Of a DNA stretch of 64,000 bases, positions 46,992 through 47,723 are shown piece after piece; within the stretch, counting starts at the first letter, position 1; each line of letters starts with the position of its first letter. The notes under the pieces are model-generated. The model was not told the origin of the DNA, did not search any database, and was given only the letters and a program-made list of their open reading frames with translations. The translations under genes were made by a program, and so were the position numbers. Source of the DNA: Candidatus Saccharimonadales bacterium (lineage in GTDB: Bacteria; Patescibacteriota; Saccharimonadia; Saccharimonadales; JBGSXW01); assembly GCA_041751215.1 (NCBI GenBank), contig JBGSXW010000005.1:67664-131663 (forward strand), given 5' to 3'.

Positions 46992-47158
46992 TGGCGGAGA
47001 GGGAGGGATTGGGCTAACGCCCCGTTTCCTCGCGTGCTCTCCGCCTAAGGCGGATGTGCGCGCTCGTTACGACCGCACCCCTTTTGCTACGCAAAAGAAG
47101 GGTTCGAATGACTATCCACTGCCAGTCTGCATAGCCCGCTTACGCAGGCCATCCAGAC
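46992..47158 (-). repeat. tRNA-Ser-associated element, copy 1 (19-bp tRNA 3'-end fragment + 148-bp structured core)
   Basis: TGGCGGAGAGGGAGGGATT (46992-47010) plus a 148-bp core (47011-47158), abutting the CCA end of tRNA-Ser(TGA). The core differs from the 47483-47630 copy at one position. Confidence 0.85.
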
Positions 47159-47248
47159 TGGCGGAGAGGGTGGGATTCGAACCCACGGTACCCGTGAGGG
47201 CACGACGGTTTTCAAGACCGTTACCTTCAACCGCTCGGTCACCTCTCC
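47159..47248 (-). tRNA. tRNA-Ser(TGA)
   Basis: Reverse complement GGAGAGGTGACCGAGCGGTTGAAGGTAACGGTCTTGAAAACCGTCG...GTGGGTTCGAATCCCACCCTCTCCGCCA. Anticodon loop CTTGAAA, long variable arm, encoded CCA. Confidence 0.92.
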
Positions 47249-47463
47249 ACAATGGCATGTTAAACAATATCTCCCATCTGGGCAAGCACGTGCAGGCACA
47301 GGAGGGATAGCGCTACGCGCTCAGACTTCGATGCTCGGCAACAACAAGCACAAGGTCTTGCTGTTGGCCTGCGCGTCTTGTCTATCGAACCCCAAGGGGT
47401 TCTCATCTCGTCATATCAACTGCCAGGTCCCTGCAGCCAACCTTTGGGCTGGCTCCATGGACC

Positions 47464-47630
47464 TGGCGGAGAGGGAGGGATTGGGCTAACGCCCCGTTTC
47501 CTCGCGTGCTCTCCGCCTAAGGCGGATGTGTGCGCTCGTTACGACCGCACCCCTTTTGCTACGCAAAAGAAGGGTTCGAATGACTATCCACTGCCAGTCT
47601 GCATAGCCCGCTTACGCAGGCCATCCAGAC
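47464..47630 (-). repeat. tRNA-Ser-associated element, copy 2
   Basis: The same 19-bp fragment (47464-47482) plus the 148-bp core (47483-47630), abutting tRNA-Ser(GCT). Here the 19 bp exactly repeats the tRNA's own T-loop-to-CCA end (47631-47649). Confidence 0.85.
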
Positions 47631-47723
47631 TGGCGGAGAGGGAGGGATTCGAACCCTCGCAGGAGATTGCTCCCCTCTAACGATTTAGCAAACCGTCCCC
47701 TTCAGCCTCTTGGGTACCTCTCC
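47631..47723 (-). tRNA. tRNA-Ser(GCT)
   Basis: Reverse complement GGAGAGGTACCCAAGAGGCTGAAGGGGACGGTTTGCTAAATCGTTAG...GAGGGTTCGAATCCCTCCCTCTCCGCCA. Anticodon loop TTGCTAA, long variable arm, encoded CCA. Confidence 0.9.

Follow-up and report, generated by a model that had tools for sequence, protein, structure and literature searches.

The 3' ends of two tRNA-Ser genes of Candidatus Saccharimonadales bacterium (GenBank assembly GCA_041751215.1, contig JBGSXW010000005.1) are each followed by a nearly identical core of 148 nt that is closed, on its far side, by the last 19 nt of a serine tRNA. Such a layout raises the question whether these repeats are the scars of an integrated element or belong to the tRNA transcription unit itself. 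We addressed this question in a window of 64,000 nt of the contig (positions 67,664 to 131,663 of the forward strand), for which a preliminary description had proposed an integrase-less, att-bounded mini-element resembling a cis-mobilizable element (CIME) or, alternatively, a conserved 3' external transcribed spacer RNA. We consider it very probable that the two units, here called E1 and E2, and a third, diverged unit between them, E3, which had been overlooked, are tRNA-linked repeats (TLRs), the family that includes the RtT RNA of E. coli. Of the two proposals, the spacer RNA is the better reading, as it describes in essence what the TLR and RtT elements of E. coli are. The att-like repeats are real, yet they are the signature of TLRs rather than of an integrase scar.

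Layout of the tRNA-Ser array

All features of the array were read on the minus strand, which is the direction of the tRNAs, and all five tRNA genes that ARAGORN detected in the window lie on this strand. The features are listed below in the order of the array, followed by the three remaining tRNA genes.

47755-47782, minus strand: promoter-like site TCGACG-16-TACAAT with TG, about 30 nt upstream of tRNA-Ser(GCT) (consensus match)
47631-47723, minus strand: tRNA-Ser(GCT), the first gene of the array, with the last 19 nt AATCCCTCCCTCTCCGCCA (ARAGORN; Rfam tRNA, 53.9 bits)
47483-47630, minus strand: core of E1, 148 nt (sequence comparison)
47464-47482, minus strand: 3' end of E1, an exact 19-nt copy of the tRNA-Ser(GCT) 3' end from A58 of the T-loop to CCA
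47291-47463, minus strand: E3, diverged third unit in tandem after E1 (match of covariance model R1, see below)
47159-47248, minus strand: tRNA-Ser(TGA), T-stem 3' strand CCCAC (ARAGORN, Rfam tRNA)
47011-47158, minus strand: core of E2, 148 nt, identical to E1 at 147 of 148 positions
46992-47010, minus strand: 3' end of E2, a 19-nt fragment of the GCT/GGA/CGA type
46972-46991, minus strand: sequence beyond E2 with similarity to the native tRNA-Ser(CGA) trailer, 44504-44523 (15/20; repeat comparison)
45818-45894, minus strand: tRNA-Arg(GCG) (ARAGORN)
44524-44615, minus strand: tRNA-Ser(CGA) (ARAGORN)
20300-20391, minus strand: tRNA-Ser(GGA) (ARAGORN)

The array runs from tRNA-Ser(GCT) through E1 and E3 to tRNA-Ser(TGA) and E2, with three units in 730 bp. 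As had been reported, the cores of E1 and E2 abut the CCA ends of tRNA-Ser(GCT) and tRNA-Ser(TGA), beginning one base past each of them (47630/47631 and 47158/47159, respectively), and on the tRNA strand the 19-mer AATCCCTCCCTCTCCGCCA, the T-loop-to-CCA end of a serine tRNA, closes both cores. Including this terminal copy, E1 and E2 are 167 nt and E3 is 173 nt long, and E1 and E2 lie 472 bp apart. The two cores do differ at a single base, but its position had been given as 47049/47521 and is 47059 (C) versus 47531 (T), i.e. off by 10. The complete repeated block comprises 196 nt (46992-47187 versus 47464-47659) with three differences and extends 29 nt into both tRNAs; the remaining two, 47171 T/A and 47185 A/T, compensate each other in the T-stems of the two tRNAs.

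The 19-mer TGGCGGAGAGGGAGGGATT is found at 46992 and 47464 as well as at the ends of tRNA-Ser(GCT) (47631), tRNA-Ser(GGA) (20300) and tRNA-Ser(CGA) (44524). The terminal copy of E1 agrees with the end of its own tRNA at 19/19 positions, and that of E2 agrees with tRNA-Ser(GCT) at 19/19 and with tRNA-Ser(TGA), whose own end reads GGGTGGGATT, at 18/19 positions. The exact repeat at the GCT gene and the foreign type of the distal copy at the TGA gene are therefore both as previously described, and so is the state of the tRNA-Ser(GGA) and tRNA-Ser(CGA) 3' ends in the window, neither of which carries an element. No additional copy of the core was detected within the 64 kb, and an exact 22-mer of the core gave 0 matches in viral contigs and 0 in metagenome contigs.

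E3 occupies most of the 215-nt spacer between the terminal fragment of E1 and tRNA-Ser(TGA), and begins one base past the terminal CCA of E1. Directly after this CCA it forms a hairpin (CCA-GGUCC...GGACC-UGG, 47422-47467). It further holds the RtT 5' motif GAUGAGAACCC..GGGUUCGA, with the motif stretch GAUGAGAACCCCUUGGGGUUCGA at 47382-47420, and a terminal hairpin, AGCGC-GUA-GCGCU, which is followed by a decayed tRNA-like end, UAUCCCUCCUGUGCCUGCA (47291-47309), in which ATCCCTCC is kept and the rest agrees with the tRNA end at about 4 of 10 positions.

[quoted passage not shown] Their first description dates from 1978 (Egan & Landy 1978; Rudd 1999; summarised in PMC8144298). They are still without an assigned function, and a claimed role of RtT in the stringent response was retracted (PMC8144298). 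At the tyrT locus of E. coli K-12, tyrT is followed by a 175-nt unit, tyrV and three 178-nt units, each of which ends in AATCCTTCCCCCACCACCA, the last 19 nt of tRNA-Tyr, and rttR is annotated there. At serX, tRNA-Ser(GGA) is followed by two tandem 181-nt units, the first annotated as 'RtT sRNA', and each made up of a terminator hairpin, a GGGGGGAUGAGAAGCCCC...GGGGUUCGAC body and the end AATCCCCCCCTCACCGCCA. Like the units of the window, the E. coli TLRs lie directly behind a tRNA gene and on its strand, are about 150-180 nt long, number between one and five at a locus, where they are often tandem and nearly identical, and carry an 18-19-nt terminal copy of the upstream tRNA end with an A58-to-CCA boundary. 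Since the terminal copy begins at the same tRNA position, A58, in the E. coli loci and in the window, and since the layout is the same, the array of the window is of the same construction as a known tRNA-Ser locus of E. coli, and its units have the architecture of TLRs.

Relation of the units to RtT RNA

In addition to the architecture, we compared the bodies of the units. R1 is a covariance model of the RtT 5' motif alone, made from 36 units, none of which came from the window or its relatives, and with the tRNA-derived tail excluded. With filters off, the best match of R1 in the whole 64-kb window was E3 (25.7 bits, E=5.6e-5). The model also matched the element on L002, a Logan contig of the closest relative (26.6 bits, E=8.9e-5), and many units outside its seed, often in tandem arrays. 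Sequence-only profiles from the alignment of the 36 units found E3 (E=0.003), and found nothing of E1 and E2 beyond the tRNA-derived end. In global alignments of the cores, E1 reached z=5.0 with L002 and z=4.0 with E3, with 0 of 300 shuffles reaching the score in either case, and L002 reached z=4.1 with E3 and z=3.3 with the E. coli unit. Like RtT RNA (RF00391), both E3 and the L002 element carry the 5' motif GAUGAGAACC..GGUUCGA, and the terminal hairpin of E3 has the form AGCGC-GNA-GCGCU of the E. coli RtT unit. The units of the window also resemble RtT in that they consist of several short G+C-rich hairpins followed by a tRNA-derived tail. Homology of E3 and the L002 element to RtT is, by these sequence comparisons, well supported.

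The core of E1 opens with a 35-nt hairpin (47596-47630), whose stem can be extended by pairing of the tRNA CCA with UGG (47593-47634). A first hairpin that is able to pair the preceding CCA in this way (CCA...UGG) is present in E1, E3, L002, L005, L034, L129 and L132. In E1, it is followed by GGAUAGUCAUUCGAACCC, a GUA-loop hairpin, GGGUGCGG and then more hairpins, so that E1 and E2, unlike RtT, have the hairpin inserted in the loop of the motif. This variant, GGAUAGUCAUUCGAACCC-[hairpin]-GGGUGCGG, resembles the GGAUUCGAACCC...GGGUUCGAC subtype of units L042, L055, L074, L079 and L111. The hairpins and the acceptor-like 9-bp helix predicted in the preliminary description are both contained in the minimum free energy (MFE) fold of the tRNA strand (-83 kcal/mol, z=-5.0, compared to -76 kcal/mol, z=-4.3, for the opposite strand), the helix being formed by GGCGGAGAG and CUCUCCGCC. 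The helix is, however, not kept in L002 or E3 and is probably incidental.

With regard to the RtT structure itself, for which some helices have covariation support (PMC8250186), we observed that GAACC and GGUUC flank, across phyla, a loop of highly variable length; in E1 and L002, another hairpin is nested in this loop. The variation of CCCGAAGGG is that of a local hairpin capped by a GNA triloop (CCCC-GAA-GGGG, GCCC-GCA-GGGC, GCCC-GUA-GGGC), whereas the Rfam RF00391 consensus pairs UUCG with CGAA; part of the published structure may thus need revision. From a full-length MAFFT alignment of the 36 units, RNAalifold recovered the GAACC/GGUUC helix alone, with no covariation.

A search of the region against Rfam, both at gathering thresholds and at E<=10, returned tRNA plus sub-threshold sX4 and plastid antisense matches that were driven by the tRNA itself. 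The sX4 (Xanthomonas small RNA) matches were seen at 47111-47261 of the window and at L118:5400-5559, with 42.7 and 45.8 bits, respectively, at a threshold of 70, and both cover a tRNA-Ser plus the beginning of the next TLR. The sX4 family may itself be a transcript derived from a tRNA-Ser and a TLR.

Two open reading frames (ORFs) of the plus strand, 46975-47310 (111 codons) and 47378-47680 (100 codons), run antisense through units and tRNAs and share their frame with respect to the repeat. Both are almost certainly spurious, and gene callers may label them as hypothetical proteins. An 18-nt similarity of 44840-44857 to the core was taken as chance.

Distribution of the units and rival explanations

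An exact look-up of the ComF protein of the window gave one Logan contig, which is 1.8 kb long and breaks off within tRNA-Ser(GCT); an NCBI protein is 99% identical to it. The ComF protein encoded on L002 is 65% identical to that of the window. On L002, the 3' end of a tRNA-Ser lies beside comF and is followed by a core of 149 nt, which an 18-nt copy of the tRNA end closes; this core is about half identical to the core of the window and has kept the first hairpin via compensatory changes. In L005 (Candidatus Saccharibacteria, GCA_016789655.1), tRNA-Ser(GCT) is followed by a unit of about 167 nt ending in AAATCCCTCCACGCCA and the Ser-TGA site is empty, and in L003 both of these sites are empty. 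Since L002 and L005 are occupied and L003 is not, the units are older than a local duplication and their presence is patchy. In syntenic loci of Saccharibacteria other than that of the window, different tRNAs are occupied, as listed below.

L129: units at Ser-CGA and Arg-GCG
L131: unit at Ser-CGA
L132: units at Arg-GCG and Ser-CGA
L034: unit at Ser-TGA
L059: unit at Ser-GCT
L013: unit at a Gln tRNA
L003 and L134: no unit in view

The Arg(GCG)-linked units of L129 (8806-8990) and L132 (8265-8440), which represent two Saccharibacterial lineages, are clearly orthologous; unlike in these two, no unit lies behind the tRNA-Arg of the window. Where the T-stems of the tRNAs of L129 and L132 differ, CTTGC versus CGTGC, the terminal fragments differ in the same way, a single covarying site that hints at concerted evolution by which the fragment is kept matched to the tRNA end.

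Genome contigs were scanned for the architecture with a pattern consisting of T-loop/T-stem, any acceptor, GCCA, a gap of 135-165 nt and ATCCCTCC, in which the spacing is fixed and the acceptor part of the copy unspecified. The scan gave at least 120 loci and, after removal of tandem tRNA pairs, at least 69 loci at which behind a single tRNA the 3' end of this tRNA is repeated, with at least 17/18 nt identical and without any mismatch in most. Among the matches listed, most tRNAs were Ser and some Gln, Trp or Arg, and at least 8 phyla were represented; the hosts were Verrucomicrobiota, Gamma-, Alpha- and Betaproteobacteria, Desulfuromonadota and other Deltaproteobacteria, Myxococcota, Bacteroidota, Clostridia and Actinomycetota, and included Saccharibacteria (L013, L034, L059) and Gracilibacteria (L061). 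Most of the scanned cores share a terminator-like hairpin after the CCA, the motif GGGAUGAGAACC-loop-GGUUCGA (or GGGAUUCGAAC) and several GNA-loop hairpins that are rich in G+C. Two of the matches listed, L118 (59.3 bits) and L086 (47.8 bits), exceed the gathering threshold of RF00391, 45 bits; they served as positive controls and give the family its name from Rfam. When 90 neighbouring tRNAs were checked, five had a downstream copy of their own end, at +58, +153, +155, +242 and +266.

The literature that we searched treats TLRs as a feature of E. coli and Enterobacterales and does not describe the broad phyletic spread, which comes from a pattern-biased scan and may be the more interesting by-product of this analysis. 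If the family truly spans E. coli, Verrucomicrobiota, Bacteroidota, Clostridia, Actinomycetota, Desulfuromonadota and the minimal genomes of the candidate phyla radiation (CPR), this would argue for either a conserved role linked to the biology of tRNA 3' ends or an efficient copying mechanism that makes use of the tRNA end.

Several points weigh against the assignment of the window units to TLRs. With R1, neither E1 nor E2 was matched in the 64-kb window with filters off, as the model does not detect their motif variant, and no unit of the window (46900-47800) matched RF00391 at E<=10. A search by nhmmer with the L002 core ranked E1 and E2 top in the window, yet with E-values of 0.33 and 0.51. 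The P1 helix of RtT, which pairs the 5' strand with the T-stem part of the fragment, is weakly formable in E1 and not clearly conserved: GGCAGUGGAU can be paired by eye with AUCCCUCC with one mismatch and one bulge, the MFE fold pairs GGCGGAGAG with CUCUCCGCC instead, and close homologues are few. The first hairpin of E1 and E2 lacks the U-run that is present in most other units. Compared to the E. coli TLRs, this hairpin sets them apart as well, as do the CPR host, the one-base mismatch of the E2 fragment to its own tRNA and a body of E1 and E2 that is too diverged for direct alignment. Moreover, the pattern scan, with its gap preset at 135-165 nt, yields no unbiased size distribution or frequency, and transcription and processing of the window units are taken from the E. 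coli analogy. Homology of E1 and E2 to RtT is therefore transitive and architectural rather than direct, because RF00391 and R1 gave no match and the nhmmer E-values were weak. Via L002, E3 and the architecture, such homology is nevertheless probable, and E1 and E2 are a divergent member of a known family in an unusual host, a CPR bacterium.

Could the units instead be the remnant or satellite of a tyrosine-integrase element that recombined in the tRNA-Ser 3' end and was mobilised in trans? As in CIMEs and in tRNA-targeting integrase islands, direct repeats of a tRNA 3' segment, here 19 bp from the T-loop to CCA, flank the DNA. The distal repeat of E2 is of the donor type, as expected for an element that carries an att copy of its own and has its crossover within the last 11 nt, and the patchy presence, with L003 empty and L005 occupied at GCT only, would fit too. 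However, no recombinase domain was found among about 40 scanned ORFs of the window, and the units, in contrast to such islands, have a constant small size, a head-to-tail tandem arrangement and a conserved RNA-like body. A circle of 167 bp would also be very small for integrase chemistry. The internal motifs are common to E. coli RtT, and two Saccharibacterial lineages retain the Arg-linked units at one site, where the fragment has changed along with the T-stem of the tRNA. In addition, the same 19-nt boundary recurs in unrelated phyla, at different tRNAs and at 5S rRNA (PMC8144298). The CIME-like mini-element of the preliminary description is thus very unlikely in view of the TLR architecture, the RtT motif in E3 and L002 and the lack of a recombinase domain in the scanned ORFs of the window.

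We regard it as still less probable that the units are decayed tRNA-Ser pseudogenes, i.e. former paralogues with scrambled 5' parts of which the 3' end was left. They do terminate in a tRNA 3' end, GGGUUCGA of the canonical units resembles the T-stem 5' strand plus half of the T-loop, and the 5' motif resembles an antisense tRNA 3' end; R1 also matches the antisense tRNA ends at 20302 and 44526. Neither ARAGORN nor the Rfam tRNA model, however, finds anything in the units; a D arm and an anticodon arm are absent, and a non-tRNA body that is conserved across phyla and many E. coli loci is unexpected under independent decay. The least probable explanation, in our judgement, is a plain segmental duplication of a tRNA spacer with neither family nor function. 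The closeness of E1 and E2, their near-identity and the lack of another copy in the 64-kb window speak for it, and the preliminary description had tied it to relatives having only the two copies, at fixed positions. Relatives instead carry units at different tRNAs, and some carry none, so that a simple local duplication of the spacer does not account for them. Units of the same layout are found in L002, L005, other Saccharibacteria and many phyla; the older third unit, E3, bears the RtT motif, and a duplication would leave the terminal 19-mer unexplained. An intron in the T-loop was rejected as well: the tRNAs that lack an interruption are intact, and at Ser-TGA splicing would leave a mismatch in the T-stem.

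Proposed transcription and copying of the units, and genomic context

TLRs of E. coli are co-transcribed with the tRNA or rRNA and then processed out (PMC8144298). By analogy, the array of the window would be one tRNA operon on the minus strand, with the units transcribed by read-through from the tRNA promoter. The terminal copies of the tRNA end, as may be the case for E. coli TLRs, would recruit tRNA 3'-end nucleases that cut after each unit, and processing would release discrete, stable, hairpin-rich RNAs of about 167 nt. In this lineage, the CCA-pairing first hairpin may have replaced the leaky terminator that is typical of most other units. The promoter-like site upstream of tRNA-Ser(GCT) and a consensus scan that detected no canonical terminator within the array are consistent with the co-transcription and processing that we infer from the E. 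coli case.

RNAs of comparable origin are known. 3'ETS-leuZ, an E. coli tRNA 3' external transcribed spacer, is a sponge for small RNAs and base-pairs with RyhB and RybB. Like this RNA, the units of the window would, by analogy, derive from a tRNA trailer and be released by tRNA processing; unlike them, 3'ETS-leuZ is a short RNA that does not end in a copy of the tRNA 3' end. The small RNAs RrA, RrB and RrF are TLRs behind the 5S rRNA in rrnA, rrnB and rrnD (PMC8144298). They resemble the window units as trailer RNAs after the first hairpin of a stable-RNA operon, produced in the case of RrA, RrB and RrF by read-through and processing, and in the terminal 18-nt copy of the 3' end of the upstream gene, about 150 bp away. 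They differ in their position behind 5S rRNA and in their binding of Hfq and CsrA, for which they use GGA loops.

That E1 and E2 are nearly identical is probably due to recent copying or gene conversion in the array, via the shared tRNA end CCUCUCCGCCA that flanks every unit. On copying, the proximal T-stem would have stayed of the TGA type and the distal fragment of the GCT type, and the native trailer would have been shifted downstream; the sequence at 46972-46991 is probably this original trailer of tRNA-Ser(TGA). The single mismatch between the 148-nt cores, the TGA type of the proximal T-stem and the similarity of the distal flank to the tRNA-Ser(CGA) trailer (15/20) would together fit a recent transfer of core plus fragment from the GCT locus into the tRNA-Ser(TGA) end, by recombination, gene conversion or template switching in the shared CCTCTCCGCCA. 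Such a transfer would need no integrase.

It is conceivable, albeit rather unlikely, that TLRs in general are pan-bacterial self-propagating tRNA-trailer elements, which copy themselves to any tRNA with the same end, by recombination or template switching via the flanking tRNA ends, and whose fragment is later homogenised to the new host tRNA. E2 would then be a copy caught just after its jump from tRNA-Ser(GCT) to tRNA-Ser(TGA), with the fragment still of the donor type, and three units in a streamlined CPR genome of about 1 Mb would point to active spread or to a conserved RNA function. With a recent, unmatched E2 beside an old, decayed E3, the window offers a clean natural case for separating a role at the tRNA end from mere copying. 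As to annotation, att-like repeats of this kind beside tRNA genes are not to be taken as integration scars.

The window encodes PolA, DnaG, RpoD, GroEL, ValRS, ArgRS, a MurC-like protein and TsaD, and is most probably core chromosome. It also contains an Hsp20-ComF pair that adjoins an array of T4SS_pilin genes together with VirB4/TrbL-like genes, and ComF homologues from Candidatus Saccharibacteria and Patescibacteria share the T4SS-pilin-Hsp20-ComF synteny, so that a Saccharibacteria-like CPR host is most probable from the genes as well. In relatives, this neighbourhood is interrupted by selfish genes (L005:3036-3650; L134:6802-7791; L003:6386-6676 and 7720-7989), namely an IS200-like Y1 transposase, a weak match to LAGLIDADG and GIY-YIG ORFs that lie between pilin genes; near the tRNAs of the window, no gene of these kinds was found. 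Finally, the region 45870-46004 holds two copies of 5'-side tRNA fragments at tRNA-Arg(GCG): upstream of the gene lies a second copy of its first 19 nt plus 7 nt of 5' flank (45979-46004 versus 45876-45901, 92%), and an inverted copy of the D-arm region is found at 45927-45947 (versus 45870-45890).

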